Source: Octopus vulgaris
Taxonomy: Eukaryota
DNA length: 64,000 nt
NCBI GenBank assembly: GCA_951406725.2
Contig: OX597815.1
Coordinates: forward strand, 14,880,001 to 14,944,000
Direction of reading: 5' to 3'
Shown here in pieces: positions 3,140-49,818 of the stretch. Every line of letters starts with the position of its first letter. The stretch's first letter is position 1. Both the position numbers and the translations under genes were made by a program. Below the pieces are notes generated by a model. That model did not search any database. It saw only the letters and a program-made list of their open reading frames with translations, and was not told the origin of the DNA.

Positions 3140-3480
3140 CTATATCGTTACATTTGAGGATGATCTCTTTTTGCCAAATGAACATACGCACTATATATTC
3201 GTTCTTGGCGTCAGATTTATTTCATTATTGTCCTTATTTTGTCCTTTGTTTGGAAATTTTTTCGTCACAACCTGAAAGACGGGATGAACTAAACAGGACA
3301 CGAGGAGACACATGGGATGGAGAGTCGCTGAGGAGGTCACAGGAAGTGTGACGACAGATTTCCAGACAATGGTCATAAAAAAATAAGAACAATAATAAAC
3401 AAGTGAAGAACGAATATATAGTGTATGTGTTTTATTGGCAAAAACAAAAAAAAATGACGATCCCGAAATATAGCAATATC
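3140..3480. mobile_element. Old fold-back PLE-type terminus with decayed hammerhead motif
   Basis: 3140-3275 is a diverged reverse complement of 3340-3480; CTGAGGA-G-GTCACA/TGTGAC-GACA at 3328-3356; same family as 33240-33420. Confidence 0.6.
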
Positions 3481-3559
3481 TGTTTCAACACACGACTTCG
3501 CATCAGGAATCTTGCTAGACAAATGCGTTTCGTTTCTAGTTTTATGAAATCCACCTCCT

Positions 3560-4070
3560 CAAGATTGGCCCAAAGGCAGTTAGTTTACATTTCCAAATGT
3601 CCAAATAATTTCAGATAAAGATCTATACCTTTATAATCCGATCGGAGTATCTGAAGATTTTTCAATAGTTCGGCTCTTCTTTCTTTATGTCTGGTCTGTT
3701 TTCTCAGCATTTACTGTGGATTTTGACAGAATCATTTTAATTACATTCATATCAGTGATTATACCCTTCACATCACAGTAATTTTTTTGTTTCTTTAATG
3801 CTATTCCTTCTACATATTTTATAGTACAATATCTTGACCACGATATTGTATGCCATTAGCAGAAAGTATTGTGATGACATTTTTGGACAGCTGCTTATGG
3901 TGTGGGATGACATCCGTATTTATTCCACAGAAGCTGCATAGTTTATCTTATAGGTTTTTTGCTTTTGGTGCATCAGGTATTTCGTTTTTATCTCCTGTTC
4001 CTGGAATTGAAGAGTGTGCCCTTCCAAGTGAGAAAACTAAATATACTTGTCATTTATACAAGGTAGGCTA
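3560..4070 (-). mobile_element. Decayed R4/Dong-like fragment (CCHC knuckle to RLE)
   Basis: Minus strand DKLCSFCG...(frameshift) HISSCPKMSSQYFL; 3635-3672 matches the ELLRNLQLLYPDY-coding segment of the upstream copies. Confidence 0.65.
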
Positions 4071-4224
4071 GTTTGGTTATCCAATATTGTGACTTTGAAG
4101 TTTTCTGTACATTATCGTGGCAAAATCAACTGATCAATGGCTACATAAAACCATACAGAGAAATCAGCTTTGATTACAACAAAACCTTTGGTGCCAAATG
4201 GAAGAACAGTCGGTATTAAAATTC

Positions 4225-4572
4225 TTTCTCCTTTTTTTTTCTTTTTCTTTTTCTTTTTCTTTCTCATTTTCTTTCACTTCGTTTTGATTTTCTCTCTTTT
4301 TCTTTCTTTTTTATTTATATTTTTTCCTTTCATTGTTTGAATATTTTTTTCCTTTTCGTTTGTTACTTAATTCCTTTTCTTCTTTTTCCTTCCTATCTTT
4401 TTCTATTCATTTCGTTCTATTTTCGTTCTTCATTGTTTTTTCTACATTCATAATTCTTTTTCTCTTTCTTCATTTCCTTCTTGTTTTCTCCCCTTTTTCA
4501 ATTTTCTTTCTTCTATTATTTTTCCTTCATCTTTCTATTCACTTCTTATTCATTCATTTATTTATTTGTTTC
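4225..4572. repeat. Polypyrimidine low-complexity tract
   Basis: T/C-rich degenerate run. Confidence 0.85.
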
Positions 4573-5510: not shown

Positions 5511-6032
5511 CCGTAAATCCTCGAGTATAATCCGCACTTTTTTCCCAAAATTTAAAGGTCAAAATCCCTAGTGCGTACTATACACGAGGTTAAAAATAAA
5601 AAATATTTTCTAAGCAATGTCTAAGTCTCTATTTGCTGTCTGGCAATGTTTATTCAGACGCATTTTGTGATGTCAGGCGCGAAAATACCTTAAGTTAAGC
5701 CTGAAAGCAATGAAATCATAAAAGAATCATCCATAACTTGCAGTAAGCAACATTTATCAAAATAAAATTATTCAGAATACAGAATAACATATAACAAAAA
5801 CAATTTGCAAACATATTTACATTCCCATATAACAGTTAAGAACATCACTATTATTGTATTACGCATGCGCGGAAGTCTTTGTTCGACTAGGTGCTACTGG
5901 CTTAATTATGCACGACTCAAGTTAGAGAAGTGGTTCGTATTATACACAAGGTTTAGCTTTTTCAGAGGTACAGCCCCCTAAAAATCCCCTGCATATTATA
6001 CTCAAGGGCGAACAATACTCGAGGATTTGCGG
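5511..6032. mobile_element. Tc1/mariner-superfamily (pogo-like) MITE
   Basis: TA|CCGTAAATCCTCGAGTAT...ATACTCGAGGATTTGCGG|TA; second copy at 32057-32571 in the opposite orientation. Confidence 0.88.
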
Positions 6033-6228: not shown

Positions 6229-6262
<34 letters not shown>

Positions 6263-6492: not shown

Positions 6493-6900
<408 letters not shown>

Positions 6901-7904: not shown

Positions 7905-7983
7905 CATATACACACACATATATATATACACGCACACGTATACACACAGACACGCACACACACACGCACACACAAGCACACGC

Positions 7984-8014
<31 letters not shown>

Positions 8015-12032: not shown

Positions 12033-12398
12033 GTATTCCCGAACCTAATCCTATCCTTTTTACCATATTTTCCAGGTGGATATGTACTCTCTGCTGTATG
12101 TTAATTATTGGACTGTGCTGTTTCTTTGTAAGTATCTTCTCTCTGATCATTATAATCCAATTCACGCAACTATTAATGTGATCATCTCTTAAAAAAAAAA
12201 AAAAAGACATCGTGACTACTAAAGCGATAAAATAAATCCCAGTGCAGTAGCGGAGTCAACAGTGTCGGCTGTTCTCTCTTCGAAAGAAAACTAATTGAAC
12301 TGATCATCCGTTGTTAAATATCACTGATCACTCAAATGTCAAGCAAATCTTAATTATCCACACAAAAGCCTGAATAAATAAATGACAACTGTTATTAA

Positions 12399-12671
12399 CA
12401 ATTGCAGCGTGGAAGGTGTTTATAAACCATTTAAGAAACACACAAAAAACCCCGTTAGATTCACTTCAACATTTAAATTTAATGTCATTGAACGGGTCGC
12501 GGTCTCAAAGCGACGAAAATATTTTGACAAATTAAATTTAAATGTTGAAGTGAATCTAACGGTTTTTGTGTGTTTCTTAAATGGCTTATAAACACCTTCC
12601 ACGCTGCAATTGTTTTCGTTCCAGCACACGATCTAAGATCAAGTCACTCGCTATGCAAGTAGACCACCGTA
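12399..12671 (+). mobile_element. Fold-back PLE-type insertion with hammerhead-shaped centre
   Basis: Arms 12397-12487 and 12525-12614; tail 12615-12671; TSD AACTGTTATTAA at 12387-12398 and 12672-12683. Confidence 0.82.
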
Positions 12672-12936
12672 AACTGTTATTAAGCTCTTGGTAAACTCTG
12701 ACCTCGTAGGCCTATGATCAAAAGCAGTCCAGTCATGACCATCCCCATCTCCATCTTGCAAAAGAATGATTGCATTGCCAGAACGTATCCTTTTATATAT
12801 TTAAAACGGTAGGGCGTGATTCGAGGGAAATTTAACTGCTGTTTGTAACAGGTCGAGTAATTCCCCCAACACCCCTCCCTTGTCGTGAATAGTCTGTCAA
12901 AGACAATGTATTTCAGATAGTAGGTGTATCGTTCTT

Positions 12937-13720
12937 AAGGCGGCGATCTGGCAGAATTGTTAGCACGCTGAGCGATATGCTTAGCGGTATTTCGTCTGCC
13001 ATTACGTTCTGAGTTCAAATTCCGCCACGGTCGACTTTGCCTTTCATCCTTTCGGGGTCGATTAAATAAGTACCAGTTACGCAGAGGGGGCGATATAATC
13101 GACTTAATCCGTTAATTTGTCCTTGTTTGTCTTCTCTGTGTTTAGCCCCTTGTGGGTAGTAAAGAAATAGGTATTTCGTCTGTCGTTACGTTGTGAGTTC
13201 AAATTCCGCCGAGGTCGACTTTGCCTTTCATCCTTTCGGGTTCGATAAATTAAGTAGCAGTTACGCACTGGGGTGGTTGTAATCGACTTAATCCTTTTGT
13301 CTGTCCTTGTTTGTCCTCTCTGTGTTTATCCCCTTGTGGGTAATAAAAAAATAGGTATTTCGTCTGCTGCTACGTTCTGAGTTCAGATTCTTCCGAGGTC
13401 GACTTTGCCGTTCATCCTTTCGGGGTCGATTAAATAAGTACCAGTTACGCACTGGGGTCGATGTAATCGACTTAATCCGTTTGTCTCTCCTTGTTTGTCC
13501 CCTCTGTGTTTAGCCCCTTGTGGGTAGTAAAGAAATAGGTATTTCGTCTGTCTTTAACTACTAAATTCAAATTCCGAAGATGTCGACTTTGCCTTTCATC
13601 CTTTCGGGGTCGATAAATTAAGTACCAGTTACGCACTGGGGTTGATATAATCGACTTAATCCGTTTGTCTGTCCTTGTTTGTCCTCTCTGTGTTTAGCCC
13701 CTTGTGGGTAGTAAAGAAAT
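12937..13720 (+). mobile_element. SINE family C, one head plus four ~184-bp tandem body units
   Basis: Head AAGGCGGCGA.CTGGCAGAA; units start GGTATTTCGTCTG at about 12987, 13170, 13354, 13538; core GCCTTTCATCCTTTCGGGGTCGATAAA..AAGTACC resembles the Meta-SINE domain; TSD TAGGYGTATCRTTCTT. Confidence 0.88.
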
Positions 13721-14068
13721 AGGCGTATCATTCTTGTATATTTTCCAGTTGCCTTTCGCATCATCAATATCACAACTCATAATGCCACACTTTGGAATCG
13801 GCCTGGGCTTAGGTAAGTCATAGTAATTTCATACCATAATAATTTGTATTAACAAATACTAATTGTTTTACTGGCTTCCACTGGTGCATGTTTATTTCAC
13901 TTTGTCTTTCATTAGTGTGAAAATTCCAAATAAAAATGTATATATATATAAGTATAGGTACAAAAATTCAGGGTGAATACTTGATAATTGTAAGCACCTG
14001 TATATACCATTAGTGGTGTAGTTGATAGAGTATATTAATCAAAATAAAAACATGATTGAAAGGATTTA

Positions 14069-14158
14069 GCGGTACATATGTTTCGGGCCTTTATTAGACG
14101 GTTTTATAACAATGCATAATTGATGTAAATGTGTGTGTCTATGGCCTTCTTCAGCCGC
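14069..14158 (-). ncRNA. Putative type I hammerhead ribozyme
   Basis: GCGG-CUGAAGA-A-GGCC[long loop]GGCC-C-GAAA-CAUAUG-UA-CCGC; palindromic stem III ACAUAUGU; GUA cleavage triplet. Confidence 0.72.
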
Positions 14159-14498
14159 GTACAATTACTACTTCAAGGACATATATTACATTATAAGTTT
14201 TACGTTGGGGATGCAAATCCTCATAGTCGCGTACGACAGAGTGGGGTACCAACACGAAATCGAAGCGTCCATCCCGCTTTTGACTCGATGTAGAATGAGG
14301 AAGTTGAATCTTCAACCCCCCAAACCCCTTCCCTCTCTAGCTCAACATCCAAACTTCCTCATTCTACATCGAGTCAAAAGCTGGATGGACGCTTCGATTT
14401 CGTGTTGGTGCCCCACTCTGTCGTACGCGACTATGAGGATTTGCATCCCCAACATAAAACTTATAATGGAATATATGTCCTTGAAGTAGTAATTGTAC

Positions 14499-14586
14499 GC
14501 GGCTGAAGAAGGCCATAGACACACATTTACATCAATTATGCATTGTTATAAAACCATCTAATAAAGGCCCGAAACGTATGTACCGC
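14499..14586 (+). ncRNA. Putative type I hammerhead ribozyme (mirror copy)
   Basis: GCGG-CUGAAGA(14503)-A-GGCC...GGCC-C-GAAA(14571)-CGUAUG-UA-CCGC. Confidence 0.65.
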
Positions 14587-14679
14587 TAAATCCTTTCAAT
14601 CATGTTTTTATTTTGATTAATATATATATAAGTATATATATATGTATATATTTCGGAAATATAAAATTATATATAAAAA

Positions 14680-15231: not shown

Positions 15232-15372
15232 GTTTTGACTATTGAAAAAGGTTGCAAACGCAACGAAAATTTTAGGAAAATAAAAATAAAAAATAAGTGG
15301 AAATTTTACCGGTGAGTGTGTTACATTATAAGGCACAAAAAGAAAATGACTCTCCCCAGACACAACAGAATA
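15232..15372 (+). mobile_element. PLE-type terminus (same family as 23332-23705), not inverted
   Basis: CTATTGAAAAAGGTTGCAAACGCAACGAAAATTTTAGG...CCCCAGACACAACAGAATAT matches 23522-23657. Confidence 0.75.
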
Positions 15373-15396
15373 TATATATATTTATATATATATATA

Positions 15397-15465: not shown

Positions 15466-15523
<58 letters not shown>

Positions 15524-15524
15524 C

Positions 15525-15932
15525 TCTCTTTTACTCTTTTACTTGTTTCAGTCATTTGACTGCGGCCATGCTGGAGCACCGCCTTTAGTCGAGCAAATCG
15601 ACCCCGGGACTTATTCTTTGTAAGCCCAGTACTTATTCTATCAGTCTCTTTTGCCGAACCGCTAAGTTACGGGGACGTAAACACACCAGCATCGGTTGTC
15701 AAGCAGTGCTAGGGGGACAAACACAGACACACAAACATATACACATACACTTATATATATATACATATATACGACAGGCTTCTTTCAGTTTCCGTCTACC
15801 AAATCCACTCACAAGGCATTGGTCGACCCGGGGCTATAGCAGAAAACACTTGCCCAAGATGCCACGCAGTGGTACTGAACCCGGAACCATGTGGCTGGTT
15901 AGCAAGCTACTTACCACACAGCCACTCTTGTG

Positions 15933-15935
<3 letters not shown>
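15525..15935 (-). mobile_element. SINE family A
   Basis: Reverse-complement family match. Confidence 0.92.
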
Positions 15936-15965
<30 letters not shown>

Positions 15966-16416
15966 TTCTATCTATATAGATATGCATGTATGCACACATA
16001 TGCGCGTACATAAATGCACACATAAGTGCACAGATACACAAATACACGCACATAGGTACGTACATAAGGCATATAATCGTACATATATATACATACGCAT
16101 TATAACCTTCAATCCGATAGTTTATAAACGGCTCATGAGTCCGATACTGTAATCGTCAATTTTCATGTGACCTTTGATCTGGTTTCTGACGTAGATACTT
16201 TATCTTTGTATTTTGTTTGTTGCTTTGAGCTATGACATCATGTTTTGAAATAACTAGCTTGTAATACTTCTTTAATTAATATCAGTGATTTTGTAAAATG
16301 TTCAGTTTGAGCGAATTTTTCGTGTGATTACGGTTTGCATAATTACCAAGTATTGTTATGGAGATGCATCAGTATTTGTCTTGTTGAGAAATGGATTCAT
16401 TTCACAAATGAATATA

Positions 16417-16811
16417 CGCGCAGGAGTGGTTGTGTGGTAAGTAGCATGTTTACCAACCACATGGTTCCGGGTTCAGTCCCACTGCGTGGCACCTTGGTTA
16501 AGTGTCTTCTACTATAGCCTCGGGCCGACCAAAGCCTTGTGAGTGGATTTGGTAGACGGAAACTGAAAGAAGCCCGTCGTATATATGTATATATATATAT
16601 GTTTGTGTGTCTGTGTTTGTCCCTCTAGCATTGCTTGACAACCGATGCTGGTGTGTTTATGTCCCCGTTACTTAGCGGTTCGGCAAAAGAGACCGATAGA
16701 ATAAGTACCGGGCTTACAAAAAAATAAGTCCCGGGGTCGAGTTGCTCGATTAAAGTGCTCCAGCATGGCCGCAGTCAAATGACTGAAACAAGTAAAAGAG
16801 TAAAAGAGAGT
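16417..16811 (+). mobile_element. SINE family A
   Basis: Family match. Confidence 0.92.
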
Positions 16812-18245
16812 ATACGTCATTGATAGCGACAGTTTGGCACACAAATGTACTATTTTCTAATCATATAAAAAATTTGTAATCGTTATGAGGTCGTGGCAGC
16901 TGTGTATTGCCTATGCGTCACTGAGGAGGACAATTAATACCGAAACATGTCCAGAGTTTTCAGCATAACAACTAAAGATCATATTCCTTCCCCCTCTGAA
17001 TATTGCCATTTTCGTTTTTGTCAATTGACATTTCCAGTGTTTTCTCCTTTGCTTATTTTGAGAATAATTGTATGAATGCCCATGACTTACCTTCTCTTTA
17101 CGGCTAAAATTTCAGTTGAATAAAAAATATTTCTCATCACCCAATTGACCATGATCGCCCGCAGTTAACAATATTTTCTTCATAAAGAAGACATCCTTCG
17201 AAAATGCATCAGTGTCATTATTTTCTTTAGAACTAAATATCTGTTCTAAATATTATTTCTCCTTTATAGGAGAAATAATATTATTTCTCCTAATAATATT
17301 ATTTCTCCTAATAATATTATTTCTCCTTTATAGGTATCACTGATGCTGCTCTCATGCCTCTCCTGGCTCTATTGGTGGACAGACGACATAACGGGGTATA
17401 TGGTGGAGTTTATTCCATATCACAAATTGCTGTTTGTTTGGCCTACGCTTTAGGTAAACCTTCTCTAACTTGTTTTTAACATCACAAGTTTTGTTTCTCC
17501 GAATGAAAACAACATCAATGTATTTCACTGTCAAGGAAAGGAAAAAAAATATTGACTTTTCGGACAGTTTACTTTTCTCAGTCTTTTTATCTGACAAGCT
17601 GTCGAAAAGTCAATATTGCCTCATTTCTTTTGAGTGCTTTGCACTTTTTTGTTCGTTGTTTTTTTAAATAAGTGTGAGAGAAGTTGTATGTGAATGTGTG
17701 TGTATGTGTATAAGAAGTGAAAGGGAGAGTGACAGGATGAGAGAGAGACAGTCAGAGACAGAGATAGACAGACAGACAGACAGAGTGGAAGAGATGAAAC
17801 CAGTGATGGCGACTCGGGCTTTAACGATATCATAGCGTGTAAGTGTGACATTGACGTAACAGAATGCTGTGATATTGATATAATAAGATAGTGTGATGTT
17901 CACATAACATAATGGTATGATATTGATGGCGTAATGGAATCCAGGTGATGATAGCATGAAACTCTGAACAAAAAGATTAACATCAATTTCTCGAACAGCG
18001 GTGGTGCCCCAGCATGGCCGCGGCCTTCGGGCTAAAACATTTTAAAGGATATAAGGATGCTTTCAGTATTTTTACTCCGTTTATACGTCGAAAAGTATAA
18101 ATTCCGACAAAATAAGGAAACATGCATGATGACAGTTAAAACGGTTTTATTCAGATTGTTGTTAAGGTATATTGAGTATTTAAAATGTACATCTAATGAG
18201 ACTCTGTTTTCAGCATCAAAGATAAATATACAAAGTACATGCATG

Positions 18246-18572: not shown

Positions 18573-18606
<34 letters not shown>

Positions 18607-18648
18607 AAAAAATGAAGTTTGAAAATGCTGCAATATTAGACAAATTTT

Positions 18649-18700
18649 AATTTTTAACATGTTTCGGTTCTTGAAATGACGAACCTTATCAAAAGAAATT
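18649..18700 (-). ncRNA. Putative type I hammerhead, U3-A8 core variant
   Basis: UU-UUGAUAA-GGUUC[GUCAUUUCAA]GAACC-GAAA-CAUG-UU-AAAAA. Confidence 0.55.
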
Positions 18701-20225
18701 ATATATAATAAAGGGAGTTCATGCTATATGTTTAAAGAGTATGATGTAATAGTTTATAATTGTGACATATATTCAATAGAGTCAAATATAAAAAATTCAT
18801 ATATAATAAAGGGAGTCCATGCTATATGTTTAAAGAGTATGATGTAGTAGTTCATAATTGTGACATACATTCAATAGAGTCAAATATAAAAAATTCATGT
18901 TCTTGAAGAGGCAAGGAGTTCATTTTAGATTTTACCTTGTGTTCCAATGGGAGCAACAGTAATGATTTTTGGTCGGTGTCTGTTCGCATAATTTTGGTGA
19001 ATTTTGTGATTGTTGGGTTTATATCAGCTCAGCTAGGCTGTGGTCACTTGCACTTTTCACTGACGTCATATAGTTCCAAACCAATCAAAACCCAGTCTCA
19101 ACGAATATAGTGAAAAGACTCCTAAAGGAAACCAACCAAGCGGAGCGACAGTTTGGCCACGGAAGAAATACGTCATCATTTTTTTGACGAACCGAAATTA
19201 GATCTGACCCATGACTGTATTCTGTTAGGTGGCTAGTCCAGCAGAACGAGACGTCATCAATATTTTGACCAATCATCCTGTTAGGTGGCTAGTCCAGCAG
19301 AACGAGACGTCATCAATGTTTTGACCAATCAGAATCGGGTCTGACCCATAGCTGTATCGTGTGGGGAAACCGACCAAGCAGGGTGACAATAGCTTGACCA
19401 CTGAGGTAATACGTCATCAGTTTTTTGACGAATCAGGATTAGATCTGCTCGTTGAGAAAGAGATCTTTTTATAAATTTTTCCTTCCCGTCAGCGTGAGTG
19501 ACTGTTTAAGGATCTGAGAAATTGTAATTCGCCCCACCTCCATTATTATAGTTCTCTCACTGTGGCTGTAGCAGCTATGGGTTAGACCCGATTCTGATTG
19601 GTCAAAACATTGATGACGTCTCGTTCTGCTGGACTAGCCACCTAACAGGATGATTGGTCAAAACATTGATGACGTCTCGTTCTGCTGGACTAGCCACCTA
19701 ATAGAATACAGTCATGGGTCAGATCTAATTTCGGTTCGTCAAAAAAATGATGACGTATTTCTTCCGTGGCCAAACTGTCGCTCCGCTTGGTTGGTTTCCT
19801 TTAGAGTCTTTTCACTATATTCGTTGAGACTGGGTTTTGATTGGTTTGGAACTATATGACGTCAGTGAAAAGTGCAAGTGACCACAGCCTAGCTGAGCTG
19901 ATATAAACCCAACAATCACAAAATTCACCAAAATTATGCGAACAGACACCGACCAAAAATCATTACTGTTGCTCCCATTGGAACACAAGGTAAAATCTAA
20001 AATGAACTCCTTGCTTCTTCAAGAACATGAATTTTTTATATTTGACTCTATTGAATGTATGTCACAATTATGAACTACTACATCATACTCTTTAAACATA
20101 TAGCATGGACTCCCTTTATTATATATGAATTTTTTATATTTGACTCTATTGAATATATGTCACAATTATGAACTATTACATCATACTCTTTAAACATATA
20201 GCATGAACTCCCTTTATTATATATA

Positions 20226-20276
20226 ATTTTTTTTGATAAGGTTCGTCATTTCAAGAACCGAAACATGTTAAAAATT
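20226..20276 (+). ncRNA. Putative type I hammerhead, U3-A8 core variant
   Basis: UUUUU-UUGAUAA(20233-20239)-GGUUC/GAACC-GAAA(20260)-CAUG-UU-AAAAA; palindromic stem III ACAUGU. Confidence 0.6.
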
Positions 20277-20349
20277 AAAATTTGTCTAATATTGCAGCAT
20301 TTTCAAACTTCATTTTTTACAAATATATACCCACTCGTATACGAGCTAA

Positions 20350-21610
20350 TCTTATTATATATATATATATATATATAGCGAGGCTATGAGAGGTATTGGT
20401 ATCTAGAAGACTCAAAGACTGGCAAGTAGCGCTAAATAAGTGCTGCGTGTGTGTGTGTGTGTTTGTTTCCTCTATGCACAGCCAAACTGCTGGATCAATC
20501 TGTAACAAATTTGGCATGAAGGTTTATCATTACTCGGGGAAGATTCTAGTGAGGTCAAATGTTGGCCCTTGCTCATATAGGCTGTAGCCTTCCGACCCAC
20601 ACGACCCTTCCGATTTTTTATCAGCGGCACAGTAGTTTCACTTTTATTCCTTCACTTTGACTTCCGATTTGTTTTTCCAGCAGCTTAATATTGTTTCACT
20701 TTTATTCTTTCACATTTGATAAGACTATAATAATACTACATACATACAACTGCTTACAAAAATAGAGATTAATGTATATTTTTTTTCTATGTTCAAAATT
20801 GTTTGCTTATGCCACCAAAGAAAAGATGCAATCTCTCCAGAAACAATTATAAAGCAAGGAAGATTGTAGAAAATCATAGACGAGAGTCTCAAGAGAGATA
20901 GGAAATGAGACTTTCCCAAGATCAGCAAAGACATACTGTAGCATGTCAAATGGAGTCTCAAGAGAGAAGGCAGATGAGACTTTCTTAAGATCAGCAAATG
21001 CATGTTGCAGCACATCAAAAAAAGAGTTTCAAGACAGAAGTGAGATGACACTTTCTCAAGATCAGCAAAGACATTCTGCAACACGTCAGATGGAGTCTCA
21101 ATATAGAAGGGAGAGGAGACTTTCCCAAGATCAGCAAATGCATGTTGCAGTATGTTTTGGAGTCTTAAGACAAGCGAGATGACACCTTCTCAAGATCAGC
21201 AAACGCAAGCTGTAACACATCAGATGGAGTCTCAATACAGAAAGGAGATTAAACTCTCCCAAAATTTCCAAATGAAACTAATGGCATGCGCTGCTCAGAT
21301 GGTAAGGTAAGATTGCCAGCACTACCAACTCCTCCTCAACATTTTATAGATCTTCTGGAAGGCACTTCCATCCAGTCAAAGGATTTTCTGAACACTATCA
21401 GACAATACAACTCTGTATTTCGAACGACATCGTTTGGTGCATCTAAGGCGATAGGTGAACATGGATTTACGCCAACGTCTAAAGTTCAAGGTCAAGTCTA
21501 TCACCTCATTGGTTCCCTGTAACCCACAATAGAACAATTGAACTTCCTCCAAATTTGCTTCGCGAGTGATGTAAGACAACAAACCCAAAGGAGGTGTCAA
21601 AACGTCAGAC
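20350..21610 (+). mobile_element. Helitron 5' fragment (TC start, 23-aa repeats, RepHel N-terminal region)
   Basis: A|TCTTATTATATA start; CSDGKVRLP..PP...FLNTIRQYNSVF..TSFGA...KVQGQVYHLIGSL is characteristic of Helitron RepHel; disrupted. Confidence 0.88.
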
Positions 21611-21967: not shown

Positions 21968-22172
21968 ATCCAAACATGAAAACACAAAGAGAAAACACAA
22001 CAACGCGAGGACGTGGAACAAATATAGTATTATTGGACGCTCAAGAAGGAAGGGAACAAGGAGGGTTTAACGTTTCGAGCGGAGCTCTTCGTCGGAAACA
22101 TAGAAGAAAGATCCAGAGAAGGGAAGACAGAGGGAAAAAAATCGCCAACTGTACACACGCGGTCACAAATTA
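21963..22172 (-). mobile_element. PLE-type 3' terminus with hammerhead-shaped motif (22065-22099)
   Basis: Minus: GUUU-CCGACGA-A-GAGC[UCC]GCUC-GAAA-CG-UU-AAAC; ends in (TA)n. Confidence 0.62.
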
Positions 22173-23331
22173 GCACTTTCATACTTAGTATAATAATCAA
22201 ATTCAATGATTACACTATGTATGAAAGCGCTAATTTAACTTTATGGACATTAGAAAATATTTTTATGATGTTAAAATACCATAATGGAAAACGTGAAAAC
22301 CAGACCATGTTTTCACTTTATTCAACTGATGTATTATTCTATACACATTCACACAAATTAGAAACGAAATACACTCATTCACGCGCCCACACACACACAC
22401 ACCCACACCCACACACACACACACGTATGTATGTAATGGTATATTTTTATATATTTGTAGGTCCATCTATTTCCGGCCATGTAGTGAAATCATATGGATT
22501 TGTTACGTAAGTCAATGTTTATATAATTCTCATGTTACTGTAGTATTTGATTACTAATTCGTAAGCTGCAAGAGCAACACAAACTAGTCTGGATATTTGT
22601 GATGAAAATAATCTTCAATTTAAGGATATGCCTGAGAGAAACAGGCAGGACATTCTGTCGATATGGAGATCTAAGGGTGATGGGTTGGCATAATCGGTAG
22701 GGCACAGGGCAAAATGCTATGCACCATTTAGTTGTGACTATTTATGTCGAGGGTCTAAATCTTGTCGAGGCCAACTTTGCTTTTAATCCTTCCGGTGTTT
22801 TACATCACCCAATTTCTTTTTCTTTTGTGGATATAGTTCATTAGCTGAACCCCAGCTGATAAATAGAATGTTTCGGATGCTACTGAGGTTCATATAATAC
22901 CTGACCGCTGTGGTCTAATCTAATATCAGCAAAGGGGAAATTGTTATGGTCTTGTCCAGTTATGGACAAACTGCGACCCGCGGGACTTTCGGGTGGCACG
23001 CCAAACGAATACTAACCTTGAAATTTTTTAGTAATGCGTTCCGCTTCTCAAAAAAGTTTGCCTATTAATTAAAACTTCGGTTTTCATTCCTTATCTTTGT
23101 TTTATTAGTCATTATAGATAAGTATTATCCTCATTACTATATATTTAATTTTAATTGATTAACATTTCTTGGCTTACATCAAGAGTGCAAGCATCATTTA
23201 CTATTAACAGCAATTGGTAGGATTCAGTCAGGACCAGGTTCCATCAAAGAGGGAAATCTAGATCTACATCGGCATACTTTGATGCAGGGTTACCAGATTA
23301 TGTAGCTTTTCAAGACTACACACCAATTTTT

Positions 23332-23705
23332 TGTTGTGTCTGGGGAGAGTTATTTTCTTTTTGTGCCTTATAACGTAACACACTCACCGGTAAACTTTCC
23401 ACTTTTTACCTTATTTTTATTTTCTTAAAATTTTCGTTGCGTCTTGCAACCTTTTTCAATAGTTTTGACTCAAACTATTGAAAAAGGTTGCAAGATGCAA
23501 CGAAAATAGTTTTGACTCAAACTATTGAAAAAGGTTGCAAGATGCAACGAAAATTTTAGGAAAATAAAAATAAGAAAAAAGTGGAAATTTTACCGGTGAG
23601 TGTTTTACATTATAAGACACAAAAAGAAAATTACTCTCCCCAGACACAACAGAATATGCTTCAACACACGAACTCACATAAAGAATCTTGCAAACCAAAA
23701 ACGAA
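23332..23705 (+). mobile_element. Fold-back PLE-type insertion with hammerhead-like motifs
   Basis: Arms 23332-23465 and 23472-23651 (with a 47-bp duplication); tail 23652-23705; TSD ACACCARTTTTT at 23320-23331 and 23706-23717. Confidence 0.82.
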
Positions 23706-26285
23706 ACACCAGTTTTTGTTTTTCTATTTAATTTAAGTTACTCCCTCAACAAAAATCTCGTTGAAAATCAGAATAAAGTATCAACTAAGTAAATTAGAAC
23801 CGACCTACTTGCAAGCCTTAAGTGTATGTATGGCTCTGAGGAAGCTATAAGATGTCGCCACTGGTATTTAACACTGAGTGCACGCTTACTTAAAGAAGGA
23901 ACTGTTGTCAGCCAATGAAAATATCATGTGGCTCCTGTTCTTTTGTCGTTCGTTTATTGAACATATATATCTGTATGTGATTGTGTGTGTGTGTGTGTGT
24001 AGAGAGAGAGAGAGAATGAGAGAATGAAAGAGAGAGAAGGGGGCTTAGACGTCACTTGCACTTGCTAGTTGTTTTTGTTGCCTATGTAGTCTCGAGCAGA
24101 CATAGACACACTCACTCTTATCTCTCCTACCCTTAACCCAGCAAAACATCGATAATGCAACAGATGTAGGAAGAAAAAAGGAGAGAGAGAGAGGGGGGAG
24201 AGTTGCACCAGTCAGTAGTCGACTGGTACTTGTTTTCAGTTAAGTAGACTTGAGTAACATGAAATGGAGTGCTCAAGGAAACAATGGCCTGCCCGGTCAA
24301 AAAATCGAACCAACACCGTAACCTCATTCTCTCTCTCAATACACAAGCACACATACATACATATTTAAAAAAAAATTTTTTTTATTTTATCTAGTTTCAG
24401 CTCACGAGCTGTGGCCATGCTGGGGCACCGCCATTTGGTCACGTTCGTCTATTCTCCTGCTCAGTTTTTTAAGACTTCCCATTTCTCCCTTGCGTCAGCC
24501 TACTATGTTCGTCTAATAGTCGAGAGACCCTTTCTGTTATTGATTTGTGTTGTAAATGTATAATTACTTTCCTTTTGTTGTATAGCCGAACGGCGTTTTT
24601 CTGTTGTATATGTATAATTCTTTTTATGATACACTTGTATTATTATTTCATCACATTGTATTGTATAGTAATTTTTTTTTAGCTTTCTTGTTCTTGTATA
24701 CGTTCGTTTGCTTTTCCCAGAAGCTTAATGCTTTGGCGCTTGACCGAATCGAGCGGTTTCAGTGGTAAAAAGCGCGAAACTGCTAGGACTTTTCGGAAAT
24801 TTACTGACGAGGAAATCTGCTGCAAATATCCCGTGTATCTTGTTTTTGCTTAGTTTCCCGTTTGTTATGTTATCGTCAAGTTTTCCGTATATTTCCGCTT
24901 ACTGTGTTTTCTCCTTGTGTTCTTTCTGTTCAACCCTTGATTTGTGTGTGTATGTGTGAAGAAGGAAAATAGGGATTAAATAAATCCAAGCAAATCCAGT
25001 TCTAGCAAATTCATTCTCTCTTCTATGATTAAGTTGCAGTTAAGGACATCAGATTTAATTGCAACTCTAAACTGAGAAGATAAATACAACTGCTGGCTGT
25101 CATTAAACTTAGAACATCTGATAAAGGTATTTCCCCTTGTCTATAACACAAACACTGGACAATAAAAATGGAGACAGTGGTCTGGAATTTATTGCTTGTA
25201 AACCCCCTTCTTTATCTCAATGTATACAAAATTTAACACAAGCATTCTGCCTATGGAAAGAAAAGCATAGCAGCTATGTGCTCTGTATCTCTGGAAATTT
25301 AGTCGATCAAATGAAGGTTCGATTGAATATGCAATGAGCAGCGCTTGCGTTGTGCCAGGCTATTCGAAACGCGTGTAAGCTAAATAAATTGTTGATACCG
25401 TCTTTTCATTGTTTGTTTTACACACATACACTCTCTCTCTCTCTCTCTCACTCTCTCTGAAATTAATTAATTTGGCAACCCAGTTTCGCTTATATAAATC
25501 CCCTTTTTACCCTTAATCCCAGTTAAATTGATTAACACAAGCGAGATGTTACTCAGTGTAATCTTCTTGTCACTAATATGCATTACGGTGCGAGTTCAAA
25601 TCTCACTGAAGACAACTTTGTCTTTCATCTTTCCAAGGTCGATAAAATATAGTACAGATCATGTAATGGGATCGTTTTTCATCTACTTAATTTTCTTTAC
25701 AAAAATGCATGGCATTGAACCAGCGTTATTAATCTATAATATAAAATATTCAAACCGACATACCGCATTATGTAAATATAAAACAGCATATGGACGTGCG
25801 TGAAAATATAGATATTTATTGGACAGAGTGAGAGAAAACAGATGACATACCTAACCAACAACGGTCCTGTTAGAAATAGCAGCCAAATATTTTTCAAATG
25901 GACCATTTCGTCTTAAAATTAAGGAAGAATACATCGGATAAATTAAGTTACAGACATATCATGTATGAAATAAATGACGAAATGGTCATGTCTGGAATCT
26001 CCTTGATGTATGTCTATTTAATTTTGAGCAGACCTGGGACTAAAAGTGAACATACAAGATGTCACTCCTTTAAAAATAAAAATTTACATGTAAAAAAACA
26101 ACTCTGTAGAGTTTAATTTGAGAGTGATTTGGTTATTACGTGCAGTAAGTCGAGCGATCGCCTAATTTATTGTTCAATATATTTTTAAATGTTCCAGTTT
26201 CTTTTTTTTTTTTTTTTGTCTGTGTGTCATTGCTTTATTTATGCTCCATTAATTCGAGCTGTTTTGAAATCTTGTTTATTTACAA

Positions 26286-28751: not shown

Positions 28752-28806
28752 ATAAACACGCCAGCATCGGTTGTCAAGCAATGCTAGGGGGACAAACACA
28801 CACACG

Positions 28807-28841
<35 letters not shown>

Positions 28842-29047
28842 TGTGTGTGTTTGTCCCCCTAGCATTGCTTGACAACCGATGCTGGTGTGTTTATGTCCCC
28901 GTTACTTAGCGGTTCGGCAAAAGACACCGATAAAATAAGTACTGGGCTTACAAAGAATAAGTCCCGGGATCGATTTGCTCGACCAAAGGCGGTGCTCCAG
29001 CAAAGCCGCAGAACAACTGACTGAAACAAGTAAAAGAGTAAAAGAGT
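28542..29047 (+). mobile_element. SINE family A with an internal inverted duplication
   Basis: Family match; 28754-28810 is the reverse complement of 28835-28893. Confidence 0.9.
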
Positions 29048-29756: not shown

Positions 29757-30525
29757 AAGGCGGCGAGCAGGCAGAAAAGTTAGCACGCTGGGTGAAATGC
29801 GTAGCCGTATATCGTCTGCCGTTACGTTCTGAGTTCAAATTCCGCCGAGGTCGACTTTGCCATTCATTCTTTCGGGGTCGATAAATTAAGTACCAGTTAC
29901 GCACTGGGGTCGATGTAATCGACTTAATACCTATGTCTGTCCTTGTTTGTCCCCTCTATGTAGGGCCCCTTGTGGGTAATAAAGAAATAGGTATTTCGTC
30001 TGCCGCTACGTTCTGAGTTCAAATTCACCCGAGGTCAACTTTGCCTTTCATCCTTTCGGGGTCGATTAAATAAGTACCAGTTACGCACTGGAGTCGATAT
30101 AATCGACTTAATCCCTTTGTCTGTCATTGTTTATCCCTTCTGTGTTTAGCCCTTTGTGGGTAGTAAAGAAATAGGTATTTCGTCTGCCGCTACGTTCTGA
30201 GTTCAAATTCCGCAGAGGTCAACTTTGCCTTTCATCCTTTCGGGGTCGATAAATTAAATACCAGTTACGCACTGGGGTCGATGTAATCGACTTAATACAT
30301 TTGTCTGTCATTGTTTATCCCTTCTGTGTTTAGCCCCTTGTGGGTAGTAAAGAAATAGGTATTTCGTCTGTCTTTAACTTCTAAATTCAAATTCCGCCGA
30401 GGTCGACTTTGCCTTTCATCCTTTCGGAGACTATAAATAAAATATCAGTTGCGGGCTGGGGTCGATCTAATCGACAGGCTCCCTCCCCAAACATTTTGTA
30501 CCTTGTGCCTAGAGAAGAAAAGAAT
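29757..30525 (+). mobile_element. SINE family C, head plus four tandem units
   Basis: Same organisation as 12937-13720. Confidence 0.88.
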
Positions 30526-33254: not shown

Positions 33255-33297
33255 GTCGCTGAAGAGGTCACAGAGGTGTGACGAAAGATTTCCGGAC
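33255..33297 (+). ncRNA. Hammerhead-like motif in a PLE-type terminus (about 33240-33420)
   Basis: GUCG-CUGAAGA-G-GUCACA[GAGG]UGUGAC-GAAA-GAUU-UC-CGGAC; stems I and III imperfect. Confidence 0.55.
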
Positions 33298-33635
33298 AAT
33301 GGACATGAGTTAAAATAAGAACAGTAATAAACGAGTGGAGAGTGAATATATATATAGTGCGTGTGTTAATTTGGTAAAAAAATGAAAAAAAAAATGACCG
33401 TTCTGAAATATAACAATATATAGGCGGTGCTCCAGCATGGCCACAGTCAAATGACTGAAACAAGTAATAGAGTAATAGAGAGTATATAAATACAAAATGG
33501 GACAAGAACGCAAAACATCCAAATAGACGATACAAAAAACACAGACGGGTCATTCGAAGCCTTTAATCTTTAGTCAAGAACCGGATCATCCTCGTATATG
33601 AAAATTCTTGACCCAATGATAACGGTCAGAGTATA

Positions 33636-34069
33636 TCATCATCATCATCATCATCATTTAACGTCCGCTTTCCATGCTAGCATGGGTTGGACGGTTTAAC
33701 TGGGGTCTGTGAAGCCGGAAGGCTTCATCAGGCCCAGTCAGATTTCGCAGTGTTTCTACGGCTGGATGCCCTTCCTAACGCCAACCACTCCGCGAGTGTA
33801 GTGGGTGTTTTTTACGTGCCACCTGCACAGGTGCCAGACAGAGCTGGCACAACGACCATGAATGGATGGTGCTTTTACGTGTCACCGGCACGGGGACAGG
33901 CGGTGCTGGCAACGGACACGAACGAATGGTGCTTTTACGTGCCACCGACACGGGGCCAGACAGAGCTGGCAAACGGCCACGAACGGACGGTGCTTTTACG
34001 TGTCACTGGCACGGGGACCAGCCGAGGCTGGCAACGAACACGAACGTATGGTGCTTTTACATGCCACCG

Positions 34070-34070
<1 letters not shown>
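33636..34070 (-). mobile_element. RTE LINE 3'UTR fragment with ~60-bp subrepeats and (GAT)n tail
   Basis: Matches the 3' ends of 50680-51368 and 53915-55270. Confidence 0.85.
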
Positions 34071-34102
<32 letters not shown>

Positions 34103-34177
34103 CACAAACGAGTGAGTGGATAAACGAAAGATGAGGGCATGCAACCAATTTATGGTGAGTTACATGTATTGATCACA

Positions 34178-34550
34178 TGTGGCTGTTTGGTAAGAAGTTT
34201 ACTTCCCAAACCACATTGTTCGGGGTCTGGTCCAACCCAACTGTGTGGCAACTTGGACAAATGCCTTCTACAATAGTCTCAGGCCGACCAAAGCTTTTTG
34301 AGTGCATTTGGTAGACGGAAATCTATATAATAGAGAAGGTCCCTTTATGTCCCCCACCACTGCTTGACAACTGGTTTTGGTGTGTTTACGCCCCCATAAC
34401 TTTGTGGTTTGGTAAAACAGATCGATAGAATAAGTATAAGGTCTTAAAAAAAAGTACTGGAGTCAACTTTTTCGACTAAAGTTCTCCAAGGCGTTGCCCC
34501 AATATGGCCATGGTCTTAAGACAGAAACAAATAAGAGAAAAATAAAAGAT
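34178..34550 (+). mobile_element. SINE family A (old copy)
   Basis: Diverged family match. Confidence 0.8.
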
Positions 34551-35087
34551 AAATGTGTATAACAAGAGAAAAGAACATGGGGCCTAACTTGATACTGGTT
34601 CATTCCAAGTCTTACATAGGTTTCAGTATTCAGCAGCACATGACATCACATTACAGATGTAACCAGCAGGTACTGTTTATAAGGCAAACATGGAGCAGAC
34701 AAGTAGTCAGGCAATTGATGAAAAAATACAAGCTAGAGACAAGCCGCAACCAACTTTGTATACCCAGGTAGCACATGCCAGATGGGGAAGGGGGTGGTAG
34801 GTAGGTAAGACAGTTGACATAATCGCAGGGTAAACTGGAGTTAATAGGGACGGGGTAAGACATTAGGTAAGAAAGAGGACTTTGGTTGCTTTTACTTGAC
34901 AGTAAAAGTTAGTGTTAAAATAAAACCTCTTTGAGAACAACAACATCATCCTAGTCCCAGCCGACCAGTCGGTCATTAACCAGTCAACCAGATCAAGCTA
35001 TGATCCTTCAATGAATAGGAAACAAATGATATTGTTGTCTACCTGAGTATCACCATTTTGAATACTTTTGTTTATATATTCCATTGT

Positions 35088-35330
35088 AAAAAGATTCGAG
35101 TGAGGTCGTTGCCAGTACCGCCTGACTGGCCCCCGTGCCGGTGGCACGTAAAAGGCACCCACTACACTCTCGGAGTGGTTGGCGTTAGGAAGGGCATCCA
35201 GCTGTAGAAACTCTGCCAAATCAAGACTAGAGCCTAGTGCAGCCATCTGGTTTGCCAGCCCTCAGTCAAAATCGTCCAACCCATGCTAGCATGGAAAGCG
35301 GACGTTAAACGATGCTGCTGCTGATGATGT
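35088..35330 (+). mobile_element. RTE 3'UTR fragment
   Basis: GGTTGGCGTTAGGAAGGGCATCCAGCTGTAGAAAC...GGACGTTAAACGATG; further copies at 39043-39218, 43972-44310 (-), 49035-49220, 50295-50492, 63607-63836. Confidence 0.85.
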
Positions 35331-37064: not shown

Positions 37065-37594
37065 ATTCTTTTGTACTCTAGGCACAAGGCCTGAAATTTC
37101 AGGGGTGGGAGCCAGTCAATTAGATCAACCCCAGTACAGAACTGGTACTTAATTTATCAACCCCGAAAGGATGAGAAGCAAAGTTGACCTCGGTGGAATC
37201 TGAACTCAGAACGTAAAGACAGACAAAATACCTATTTCTTTACTACCTACAAGGGGCTTAACACAGAGAGGACAAACAAATGGATTAAGTCGATTACATC
37301 GACCCCAGTGCTTAACTGGTACTTAATTTATCAACCCCGAAAGGATGAAAGGCAAAGTCGACCTCGGCGGAATTTGAACTCCGAACGTAAAGGCAGACGA
37401 AATACCGCACTGGGGTCGATATAATTGACTTAATCCATTTGTCTGTTCTTGCTTGTCCCCTCTGTGTTTAGCCCCTTGTGGGTAGTAAAGAAATAGGTAT
37501 TTCGTCTGCAGTTACGTTTTCAGTTCAAATTCCACCGAGGTCAACTTTGCCTTTCATCCTTTCAGGGTCGATTAAATAAGTACCAGTTACGCAC
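37065..37594. mobile_element. SINE family C units in inverted arrangement
   Basis: Minus units 37065-37407 abut plus units 37407-37594. Confidence 0.82.
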
Positions 37595-46117: not shown

Positions 46118-46952
46118 TATATATATACATTTTAAATATATATACATGAAATAGTTCAAAGTAACCTTAAAACTATCCAGACACTGATTTAACCAGGTAT
46201 AAGTTAAGCTTTAATCAAGAGATGTATAGTACAGCTGTTCTTGGTCACTTTGGATCACATCATTTCATCATTCCGCATTCAGTACAACACAACCCCAAAT
46301 ATCTAAATCACTGATTGAAGCATTTTGTTTCAGTTAAAACAACTGGTATTGCCATTCCATAAGCATTGCAATTTTTGTCTTACAATTATTCAGTCAACAA
46401 TAAAGCTTGAAGAGTTAATATAGAAATAGAAGACGTTACTGGTTAGCTGTAATCAGAAATTGCTATGTTGTTTATCTGTGTCTAGAATTTTTACTATTGT
46501 GCAAATCATTTGAATTCTTTCATTTTCTCTGTCATTAATTACCAAAGAAAGTGTTATATGATGAAAGCTGATACAGATAGTACAGAGTAGTTTCTGGCAG
46601 CTAAAGGCATGTAATCAGTCTTATACGGTTTCATCAGCAAATTAACTTGCCTGCAAAGAAATTTTCTTCTAAGAATCAAGCTTTATGAAATTCTTAATTT
46701 CTAAAAATTATTTCCTCTTTTCTTTGGCCTTCATAAACAGTTACTATAAGATTTGTTTTCTTTATTTCATTTAAAGGGGCAATCTCAATTGACAGTGAAT
46801 ATTCTGTGTTTGTCTTTCACTATGTCATACAGACTTTCATTCCTCATCCCTACCAAAATAAAGGGCTTCTTTTAACTCTTGGATTTTTATAAAGAGATTA
46901 AGGTACATTATTTACATTTGATAGATATTTGTCCTCATCTTGTTTGTTGTTA

Positions 46953-46996
46953 ACACAATGTTTCAGCTGATATACCCTCCAGCCTTCATCAGGTGT
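46953..46996 (-). ncRNA. Putative type I hammerhead
   Basis: ACAC-CUGAUGA-A-GGCUG[GAGGGUAUAU]CAGCU-GAAA-CA-UU-GUGU. Confidence 0.65.
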
Positions 46997-47223
46997 CTTG
47001 GGGAAATTTCAGACCTGGGTTCTCATTCCTAAAGTATTTTTCAGTGTTATTATAATTCAGGTCACTGCCTGGAATCGAACTCGGAATCTTGGGGTTAAGA
47101 GCGTGGGCTACTAACCAAGATTCTGAGTTTGATTCCAGGCAGTGACCTGAATAATAATAACAATAATAATAATGTTGAAAAATACCTTAGGAATGAGAAC
47201 CCAGGTCCAAAATTTCTCCAAGA

Positions 47224-47267
47224 CACCTGATGAAGGCTGGAGGGTATATCAGCCAAAACGTTGTGTT
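47224..47267 (+). ncRNA. Putative type I hammerhead (G12 mutated to A)
   Basis: ACAC-CUGAUGA-A-GGCUG/CAGCC-AAAA-CG-UU-GUGU; the two arms together imply ancestral CAGCC-GAAA-CG-UU. Confidence 0.6.
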
Positions 47268-49818
47268 AACAACAAACAAGATGAAGACAAATATCTGTCA
47301 AATGTAAATAATGTAAATAATTCCTCATCTCTTAAATATAGAACAGAGATTAAGGTGTTTGATGTAGATGTAAGTGGTAGGGTACAGTGATGTGGGCCTG
47401 GGCAGAAGTAAAGGGATTGGAAGAGGGCGAACTAAGTAGAACATATGTCAGAGGTGGTTATGTGTGAACAGTGGACAAAATTTCATGAGTAGTGAACAGT
47501 AAAGCTAAGTAAACTTGCTGTATATGATAAAGAGACAAAAAAAAAACCGAGACAGATTTGCTGAATGTGAAACACTAGACACAACACAGTTGGAATAGTA
47601 AGGTATTTTGTTAGCATATGGCTTCTATGTTATTTTCAAGCTTAGTAGATCTTCTCTAAGCATATCACCGATTAGCTACATTCAGTGAAATCAAGTGTCA
47701 CAATTCCATTATTAGTCCTGGCAGGAATTCAGTAAAGGTATGAGCTACTCAACAATCTAATTAAAACTACCATCATTTCCTGCTCATTAGCAATCAATAT
47801 TATTTGATCCACTACTTTATGACATCATGGGTCTTGGTACACAAATCCAGTTTATGTCAAGTGACCCCATTCCAGTGGTTATCTGTCTTCATTTTCGCTC
47901 CAGCTACCATTAAACACAACTTCTTCACTAACATTAGGAAGACTCTGTAATGCCTTTTGATGTGCAAGAAATGGCAGGTAAATCTCTTTTAAAATACACC
48001 TTACTGTCTCAGAAAAATAAGTGATACCAGATACACCATATCTGAAAAACAAAGACATGATGGTCCCAGAATGTCCTTTAATCAAAGATTTGATCAGAGT
48101 TGATCTGGAGAATAAACAGCTTCATAAACCCAAATCACAGGTCCTTACCAAATATAACAAATCAATGCACTTTTCCTCCCCACTCCCTCACAACTTCTTT
48201 AACACACTAGACCAATTTTGTACATGAATTCAGCTGTAATGAAAATGACTATTCAATTGGTATCTACCGCTGAGCTGTATGAAATCTCATATTAAGTGAT
48301 CAAATTAACAAGTAAGAGAATCCTATTAAATTAAGCCAGATCACAATTCTACAACCTTGACAGGTGGAAAATAATCCAGTTGAATTAGCCAAGGTGGCTC
48401 TTTATGTACTTTTAACCAGGAAGAACAAACACCAACCAGAAGACAGAAACACTATTTTAGAACAAAACTAACAAGATTGACTACACAATTTAAACAGTAG
48501 GATTACCATGGGAGAAGAAATGAAGTAGGAAATAAGCAAGGACAAGTCAACAGTTTATATTTATTGTGCCTTAGCTATGCACAAGTTTTGTAAAATGGAA
48601 GAATGTTGTGATTTGAGAGAGATTTGACCTATTTCTAGCATGTCAAGCTATCATGTAAAGCAGGCATGAGTAACCATTTTCAACTTCAAACAAGCTGCAT
48701 AAAAAAAAAAAAAAAGATTCCAGGTAATTTTCTGATTGGCATGCCATTCAGGAAGTCTCACAAGCTGCAGTTTACCCATGACTAATGTAGAGGCTCTTTC
48801 AATGGCTTGAGACTTAAGACGCCAGACTCAAAAAGTTTGTGAGTTCAAATTCTCTAACTCTGAACAAGACATAATTCGGCACACATTAGTTTACAGTATC
48901 TGAATGAAGAAAATAACTTGAATGGTCCAGCATCCTCTCCAAAAGAAAAGTTTGTCTCTAAAACAATGGTACAAAAAAATCTGGAAAGAAATATATACAC
49001 AAACAGTAGCTTTATTCATGTAGTTCGCAGAATTCTGATATTTATATAATATATACTACACTCTCAGAGTGGTTGGTGTTAGGAAGGGCATTCAGCTGTA
49101 GAAACTCTGCCAAATCAAGATTGGAGCCTGGTGCAACCATCTGGTTCGCCAGCCCTCAGTCAAAATCATCCAACCCATGCTAGCATGGAAAGCGGACGTT
49201 AAACGATGATGATGATGATGATATATATATATATATATATATATATGTAATCAAGGAAGACTTAGCCACTGTATTAATGGATTAAGGTGCTTACGTTGGC
49301 TCTCACATTTCCTTGACATTTCTGACGTAGGTTATCATAACATTTCTAGCATACACAAGCTTTCACATCATGACCTCTGATTTTAAGAATTAATCAACAA
49401 GTGAAATAATGATGATTGAGTAAGCTGCTTATAAAGAAGGTATAAGAGATTGTTTAAGAAACTACTTTTCCCTATTCCTCACTCACTATCTGCTCCATAT
49501 TCTCCGAGGAAGTGTTATGCACAGTGAGATCTGAACAAAAGCTAAGAAACATACTAGCTTTAAGGAAAACTCTAAACATTTCACTTCTGTTTACAAATTA
49601 TAATTATAAAAATCACTCAACTACTCAATAACCTTGGTGATATATATACTAACTATTCTAATTAACTGTTATTTGTAAACAATATTGTTTCATTTACAAG
49701 TAAACATTTTATTTACAACAGTTTCGCTCATTTATTAATAAGTGGTACAAAAAATTCTACACATATTAAGAACCCTTGACATATGAAATATTCATTGATA
49801 AATAACTGACCCTATTAA

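Follow-up and report, generated by a model that had tools for sequence, protein, structure and literature searches.

Hammerhead-bearing palindromes in an Octopus vulgaris contig are probably head-to-head 3′ ends of Penelope-like elements

The insertion structure of Penelope-like elements (PLEs) that carry an endonuclease (EN) has been described. In Pen2a of Adineta vaga (PMC3846280) and in the legend to Fig. 2 of PMC8557442, an inverted, 5′-truncated copy lies at the 5′ end, one of the inverted pseudo-long terminal repeats (pLTRs) carries a tail, and a target-site duplication (TSD) of 8–10 bp bounds the insertion; head-to-head palindromes and solo pLTRs also occur. The pLTRs hold minimal type I hammerhead ribozymes, and dual motifs on opposite strands 100–700 bp apart have been ascribed to truncated PLEs (PMC4209133). 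In vitro, the protein of Poseidon from Anolis (PAc) acts on AT-rich DNA by cutting both strands and extending them, and two reverse transcriptase (RT) start sites bound the tail (PMC11167929). Short hammerhead units tied to PLEs are described as animal non-LTR retrozymes (PMC7229834; bioRxiv 10.64898/2026.07.22.740005) and, combined with a promoter, as elements in schistosomes that resemble short interspersed elements (SINEs; PMC6765202). We compared with these systems six palindromic insertions in a 64-kb window of the 2.8-Gb Octopus vulgaris assembly, the window being the whole stretch analyzed (contig OX597815.1, positions 14,880,001 to 14,944,000; 33–44% GC and rich in microsatellites). 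The units are called E1 (3143), E2 (12399), E3 (13957), E4 (18596), E5 (23326), and E6 (46905) after their start positions.

We conclude with high confidence that the six palindromes are 5′-truncated 3′ ends (pLTRs) of six protein-coding, endonuclease-bearing PLE families, each inserted as two head-to-head copies. This is a known PLE system with modest new detail and not a new non-coding class. An earlier note on this DNA had described the units as PLE-mobilized hammerhead elements that often integrate as hairpins, and had assigned them to six unrelated, non-coding, retrozyme-like families. Its view that PLEs mobilize these units, which often integrate head-to-head as fold-backs tailed on one side and bounded by a TSD, was borne out, and self-alignment recovered each of the six as a local inverted repeat with arm identities of 73% (E1, 3143–3526), 84% (E2), 92% (E3), 99% (E4), 87% (E5), and 85% (E6). 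The non-coding class had to be abandoned, since all six families continue into PLE open reading frames (ORFs) elsewhere in the genome.

A first look gave 1,146–3,385 candidates per family; from these we scored 40 and retrieved 30 for each family. Every set includes the window copy, and the E3 set comprises 27 copies after three second arms were dropped. Extension in the 5′ direction, proposed in the earlier note as a way to find PLE frames, led in the longer genomic copies of all six families into PLE coding sequence with a GIY-YIG frame, and RT frames were seen for E3, E4, E5, and E6. The E4 parent (L195) has an open frame of 615 amino acids that matches RVT_1 (E 6.9e-08) and GIY-YIG (E 2.8e-05), both above the Pfam cut-offs, and the E4 arms of the window align to the stretch just downstream of this frame. 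In the E3 parent (L191) an inverted and then a direct pLTR precede broken RT and EN frames and a 3′ pLTR follows them, giving a partial tandem in which pLTRs flank the ORF. For E5, L203 has a GIY-YIG frame about 0.8 kb upstream of the unit; of 30 EN loci, 25 have the E5 end downstream on the same strand; and L273 contains an RT-EN frame of 665 amino acids. All four long E2 loci that were fetched (L270, L271, L272, and L275) have an EN about 1.1–1.4 kb upstream that is 40–49% identical to that of E5. Upstream of E1, L176 and L178 hold a decayed GIY-YIG frame that shares 33% identity with the proteins of E5 and E2. In E6 the end of the EN is followed by a tRNA-like head in 29 of 30 loci and then by the hammerhead in 23 of 30. 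Short copies were 90–97% alike to the ends of long copies. The relatives of one parent ORF include two named octopus proteins. As the earlier note had reported, the window itself holds no PLE coding sequence; tblastn with the parent peptides gave no match at E 0.01.

The families are also fewer in origin than had been supposed. The tails of E1 and E5 are 74% alike over 81 nt and the E1, E2, and E5 parent proteins are 33–49% identical, so these three form one lineage and the window samples four lineages rather than six. According to PMC8557442, Hydra-clade PLEs are marked by DKT and a CxCx5C linker, Poseidon by the absence of a linker finger, and Neptune and Nematis by a CX2-5CxxC linker. Judged by motifs only, the E3 parent appears to be of Hydra type (DKT, an RW motif, a CxCx5C linker, and (TA)n targets), and E6, with no linker finger, appears to be of Penelope/Poseidon type, the clade type of PAc. 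E4 and the E1/E2/E5 lineage are of linker-bearing types, E4 of Neptune/Nematis type; the linker itself was seen in E4 and in E5/E2.

Several observations were made beside these parents. Long stretches rich in (CATA)n or (CA)n lie between ORF and pLTR in the E2, E3, and E5 parents (L240–L269 upstream of the match; L191:2350–3100; L203:6850–7480), so that these PLEs may seed microsatellites. A LINE-type RT element adjoins one E2 parent copy (L272:4209–6649, minus strand). Longer E2 copies are concentrated on one contig of 58.8 Mb (C16; loci L240–L269), which held 34 of the best 40 matches. A 28-mer upstream of the E2 unit has at least 25 exact matches there, as against 45 on eight other contigs (about 1,109 Mb), which is roughly tenfold denser; a literature search for a sex-chromosome link of this concentration returned nothing. 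Two loci first taken as long E2 copies (L053 and L061) were set aside, as neither the 950 nt translated nor the longer stretches contained a PLE frame.

The anatomy of the six window units agrees with this origin. E1, an old copy (3143..3526, plus strand), has an inverted arm at 3143–3274, a sense arm at 3288–3526, a tail at about 3480–3526, and an 11/12 identical TSD at 3131–3142 and 3527–3538. E2 (12399..12671, plus) consists of an inverted arm at 12399–12483 and a sense arm at 12483–12671 with a 57-nt tail (12615–12671), between perfect 12-bp TSDs at 12387–12398 and 12672–12683. In E3 (13957..14624, minus) the tail arm lies on the minus strand at 13957–14305 with a 74-nt tail at 13957–14030 and the tailless arm on the plus strand at 14311–14624; the target is (TA)-rich, as is the 16-bp duplication at 13941–13956 and 14621–14636. 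E4 (18596..20360, plus) is flanked by (TA)n and has a tailless inverted arm at 18596–19573, part of which is an apparent 217-nt loop, and a sense arm at 19572–20360 with a tail from about 20330 to about 20360. Within its 3′ region are tandem duplications of 98 bp and 56 bp (18696–18898, 19222–19331, and mirror copies), which belong to the family sequence. E5 (23326..23705, plus) has an inverted arm at 23326–23471, a sense arm to 23705, a tail at about 23652–23705, and an imperfect TSD (23320–23333 and 23706–23718). E6 (46905..47344, plus) has an inverted arm at 46905–47092, a sense arm at 47093–47344, a tail at about 47315–47344, and perfect 12-bp TSDs at 46893–46904 and 47345–47356. All six units therefore carry a one-sided tail, where the earlier note had counted four. 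Duplications flank five of the six units, perfect for E2 and E6, 16 bp for E3, and near-perfect (12–14 bp) for E1 and E5; E4 lies in (TA)n.

Across the families the outer arm ends sit at two fixed positions, the tail end and the tail start. Measured from GAAA, the outer end of the inverted arm falls at +92 to +98 in E2, at +101 to +110 in most E5 copies, at +53 to +67 in most E6 copies, and at +50 in E3. Copies differ in where the inner junction falls, and an overlap of 1–7 nt is frequent there. We counted tails in contiguous fold-backs, defined as arms no more than 60 nt apart (E2, n = 15; E5, n = 12; E6, n = 14; E3, n = 9). This leaves aside E1 and E4, two unmappable rows, seven rows with wider gaps, all one-tailed, and the false microsatellite arms that had entered the initial raw tallies, notably for E4. 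One tail was present in 49 of 50, one fold-back had no tail, and none had two. The E2, E5, and E6 queries included the tail, so units with two tailless arms could not be sampled in those families; with the tail-free E3 query there were eight one-tailed units, one without a tail, and none with two. Of the 49 one-tailed fold-backs, 24 had a longer tail arm, 16 a longer tailless arm, and 9 arms of equal length. TSDs of at least 8 bp outside simple repeats, scored in E1, E2, E5, and E6, were found in 8/11 E5, 10/15 E6, and 6/15 E2 insertions, versus 3/110, 2/210, and 10/210 mismatched-pair controls, and TSD lengths ranged from 8 to 17 bp. Head-to-head pairs numbered nine among the first 100 of 7,054 E2 core matches, an unranked list.

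As a comparison, the Pen2a-type insertions share the inverted 5′-truncated copy, the tail on one inverted pLTR, the TSD, the head-to-head palindromes, and the solo pLTRs. The octopus inserts differ in that they hold pLTR sequence only and have tails of 30–74 nt, and the one-tail rule and the arm asymmetry are here counted over 50 insertions. With PAc they share AT-rich targets and would share two RT start sites bounding the tail and the cutting and extension of both strands. In the PAc work the start site was no different between strands, whereas nearly all octopus fold-backs combine an outer start on one arm with an inner start on the other.

We lean, by a little, towards a mechanism in which each strand uses a different start site and the two cDNAs are joined head-to-head. 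The element's RT/GIY-YIG protein would nick both strands of AT-rich DNA 8–17 bp apart. One nick would prime reverse transcription at the outer start site and yield the tail-bearing arm, and the other would prime at the inner site and yield the tailless arm. Each cDNA would terminate early or reach the RNA's 5′ end and run off, and the two would then be joined through microhomology. A different route from the same PLE origin is self-priming, or snap-back, of one strand, with the tail left by endonuclease resolution; self-priming was proposed for an antisense template in PMC3846280. This would account for the strict one-tail rule, for the 1–7 nt overlaps at many junctions, and for the 33 of 49 fold-backs in which the tail arm is equal or longer. 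However, snap-back from one fixed strand should give asymmetry in one direction only, and 16 of 49 fold-backs have a longer tailless arm, as does, by about 230 nt, the 99% identical E4 of the window. These longer tailless arms disfavor snap-back unless later deletions explain them, and we regard it as rather unlikely. Together with the one-tail rule, they favor the head-to-head joining of two cDNAs that were primed separately. That there is one tail, and that either arm may be the longer, constrains models of PLE integration in a way that can be counted, and the in vitro system already at hand would allow a test.

The hammerhead motif was clearest at the level of the families. The earlier note had seen a minimal type I hammerhead-shaped motif in each unit; this holds in the family alignments and, except for E3, in descriptor searches, while most window copies are decayed and that of E3 is bulged. 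An Rfam scan of the window gave 122 matches at E up to 10, none of them a hammerhead, and its miRNA matches fall mostly on microsatellite palindromes. A first descriptor matched E4 alone in the window because single copies are decayed. The strict descriptor (Watson–Crick 3-8, G10.1-C11.1, helix II of at least 4 bp, palindromic helix III, UH, and helix I of at least 3 bp) passed two window sites, the plus arm of E4 and a solo E1-family copy (33255..33419, plus; core at 33259), versus none in 30 window shuffles. By family the descriptor passed 17/30 E2, 25/30 E4, 18/30 E5, 3/30 E6, 1/30 E1, and 0/27 E3 copies, with none among 1,080–1,200 shuffles per family. E6 and E1 copies fail because they are decayed and E3 copies because of a bulge in helix II; the alignments of all three still show the motif.

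Within the window units the E1 motif lies at 3324..3367 (plus) with a C3-G8 core at 3328–3334 and a decayed GAAA. The E2 motif (12483..12529, plus) is mutated at positions 3 and 9, and its family-level form has G3-C8, a 7-bp stem I, and a 5-bp stem II. E3 has cores at 14148–14154 (minus) and 14503–14509 (plus), E6 has C3-G8 cores at 47227–47233 (plus) and 46986–46992 (minus), and E4 has U3-A8 cores at 20233–20239 (plus) and 18686–18692 (minus). The U3-A8 cores of E5, at 23478 and 23525, lie inside a 47-nt tandem duplication (23458–23554), which sets two hammerheads head-to-tail in an arrangement that would permit dimer folding.

The core pair 3-8 differs between families. In copies with an intact core frame it is C-G in E1 (15/16), E3 (24/25), and E6 (13/14), U-A in E4 (27/27) and E5 (24/25), and G-C in E2 (21/23). 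The E2 core has 7,054 exact matches genome-wide; G3-C8 was present in 95 of the first 100 and the remaining 5 were unpaired. We also compared an E2 copy with RNA reads from three raw runs of one study (1,084–1,438 reads placed per run; about 6/100 of each run read) and a contig set from a fourth run. No alternative letter was listed at positions 3 and 8 in the four runs. Both strands were covered about equally and molecule ends did not pile up, although these data come from fragmented RNA and are uninformative about cleavage. Differences in helix II between E1, E2, and E5 are paired changes. Across families this pair has switched among C-G, U-A, and G-C, which suggests that the active fold is under selection. 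The octopus motifs share with the pLTR hammerheads of PMC4209133 the minimal type I fold, the unpaired base before helix II, G10.1-C11.1, the palindromic helix III, the U3-A8 variant, and dual motifs on opposite strands, and they differ in the G3-C8 pair of E2 and in the loop II of about 50 nt and helix II bulge of E3. They are of the usual minimal pLTR type and are predicted to work only as a dimer or with the help of a protein. U3-A8 has been reported in nature (PMC3088659, PMC4209133). In the literature searched, G3-C8 appeared only as an engineered rescue mutant (PMC11167929, PMC8495972, PMC3884650), which does not establish its absence from print.

Some of our results weigh against the PLE origin or parts of it. 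The E1 parent is a decayed EN fragment in which no RT was seen, the E2 parent has only a short RT-like stretch (L270), and a fully intact, complete parent ORF was shown for no family. Pfam returned no family on six E3 parent frames and sub-cutoff matches only on L273 and L272, so these assignments depend on BLASTP and on motifs that were recognized by eye. E1 TSDs did not exceed the control (1/6 vs 1/30). The arm-length asymmetry could come from deletions in palindrome centers after insertion. Covariation at 3-8 was found between families and was not seen within one (the first 100 E2 matches), and we infer rather than observe cleavage.

The short copies could also have a life of their own. E2 5′ ends cluster at −35 to −56 from GAAA in 22 of 29 copies, and the 28-mer just upstream of this cluster has 193 exact matches versus 7,054 for the core. 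E6 5′ ends fall at −164 to −197 in 25 of 29 copies, and the tRNA-like head starts near −181. This head has an A-box-like stretch in 14 of 30 and a B-box-like stretch in 24 of 30; TTTT occurs in 3 of 30 units, as against 108 of 484 window tiles that lack it. In this, E6 short copies resemble tRNA-derived SINEs, with A-box-like and B-box-like stretches at the 5′ end and few T4 runs. In the window E6 a remnant of the head (47093..47145, plus) keeps a B-box-like stretch at 47125–47136, the A-box part having been lost at the inversion junction. The head is likely to be a promoter. One reading of these data is that short units are self-propagating and non-autonomous, like SINEs or retrozymes, with their own transcription start, the PLE protein acting in trans, and the E6 head serving as a Pol III promoter. 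We consider this unlikely, since the head is built into the coding element (29 of 30 EN loci), the short copies are 90–97% alike to long-copy ends, and truncation points in E3 and E4 are spread (the E5 cluster is confounded by the query start). ARAGORN called no tRNA gene in 10 loci and Rfam no tRNA; a relaxed ARAGORN call at 47062–47147 is one among 37 such calls. Run-off of RT at the 5′ end of a pLTR-initiated transcript would also give clustered ends, and both this and independent SINE-like amplification fit. Independent amplification is moreover compatible with the PLE-end explanation and not exclusive of it. The non-autonomous idea of the earlier note thus survives in a weaker form, in that long copies are far fewer than short ones with clustered 5′ ends, and the E6 short copies start at the tRNA-like head.

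Like the retrozymes, the octopus units are short, bear hammerheads, and are tied to PLEs, and E6 combines a likely promoter with a hammerhead as in schistosomes. Retrozymes, however, are head-to-tail tandems without a coding parent, whereas the octopus units are head-to-head and continuous with PLE ORFs; the sole head-to-tail exception is the 47-nt duplication in the window E5. What we found is instead the makeup of an EN-bearing PLE: RT plus GIY-YIG at the C terminus, upstream of the pLTR (with the RT gaps of E1 and E2), a type I motif, an inverted copy with a one-sided tail, and variable TSDs in AT-rich or (TA)n targets. A tRNA-headed pLTR was not met in the limited literature covered (including PMC6765202 and PMC8969392).

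The class itself is known, so the main value of these results lies in annotating such palindromes correctly: they are readily classed as miniature inverted-repeat transposable elements (MITEs) or as repeats of unknown type, and their hammerheads escape Rfam. Beyond the print we found, three leads emerge: the 3-8 pair by family, including G3-C8; the one-tail rule with either arm longer; and the clustered 5′ ends with the tRNA-like head. A bolder synthesis would make E2 a natural, functional G3-C8 ribozyme in thousands of copies that completes the C-G/U-A/G-C exchange within one PLE lineage, with insertion coupling two cDNAs, one per RT start site, and with E6 having captured a tRNA-type Pol III promoter and spawning its own SINE; we offer this tentatively and think it somewhat more apt to fail than to hold as a whole. 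A natural G3-C8 core would widen the descriptors used in ribozyme searches and argue that PLE hammerheads are selected for catalysis, and, if a pLTR carried a tRNA-type promoter, this would be a path by which PLEs could give rise to SINE-like elements.

It is very improbable that the arms are the terminal inverted repeats of MITEs or foldback DNA transposons, as their palindromic form and high copy number might suggest, because fixed symmetric repeats and a TSD of fixed length were lacking, TSD length and junction vary, the tail is one-sided, many copies have no inverted arm, and the sequence is continuous with RT/GIY-YIG frames. Palindromes are a known long-read artefact and the E4 arms are 99% identical, but an assembly origin is hardly credible given arms of 73–92% identity in five of the six units, TSDs that enclose the whole unit, and opposite-strand joints of the E2 family in raw RNA reads (the three runs) and in contigs of the fourth, to which template switching during cDNA synthesis could contribute.

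Other repeats in the window were also noted. A solo, tailless E5-family copy (15239..15373, plus) ends at the inner fixed end of its family and adjoins (TA)n. Further inverted pairs (37140–37588, 61510–61643, 15520–16814, 33637–35329, 55946–57031, and 28752–28894) appeared by eye to be other repeats and did not match the six families. Shorter palindromes (60114–60177, 50213–50276, 28752–28894, and 22167–22236) likewise did not match E1–E6, and one is centered on (TA)n within a different repeat. No hammerhead passed the descriptor in a 184-bp unit that contains a B-box-like stretch; this unit forms tandem arrays of 2–4 copies (12986–13723, 29807–30475, 59079–59446, 61569–61929, and 37140–37588) and also occurs inverted (37140–37588 and 61510–61643), as if it inserts with inversions.

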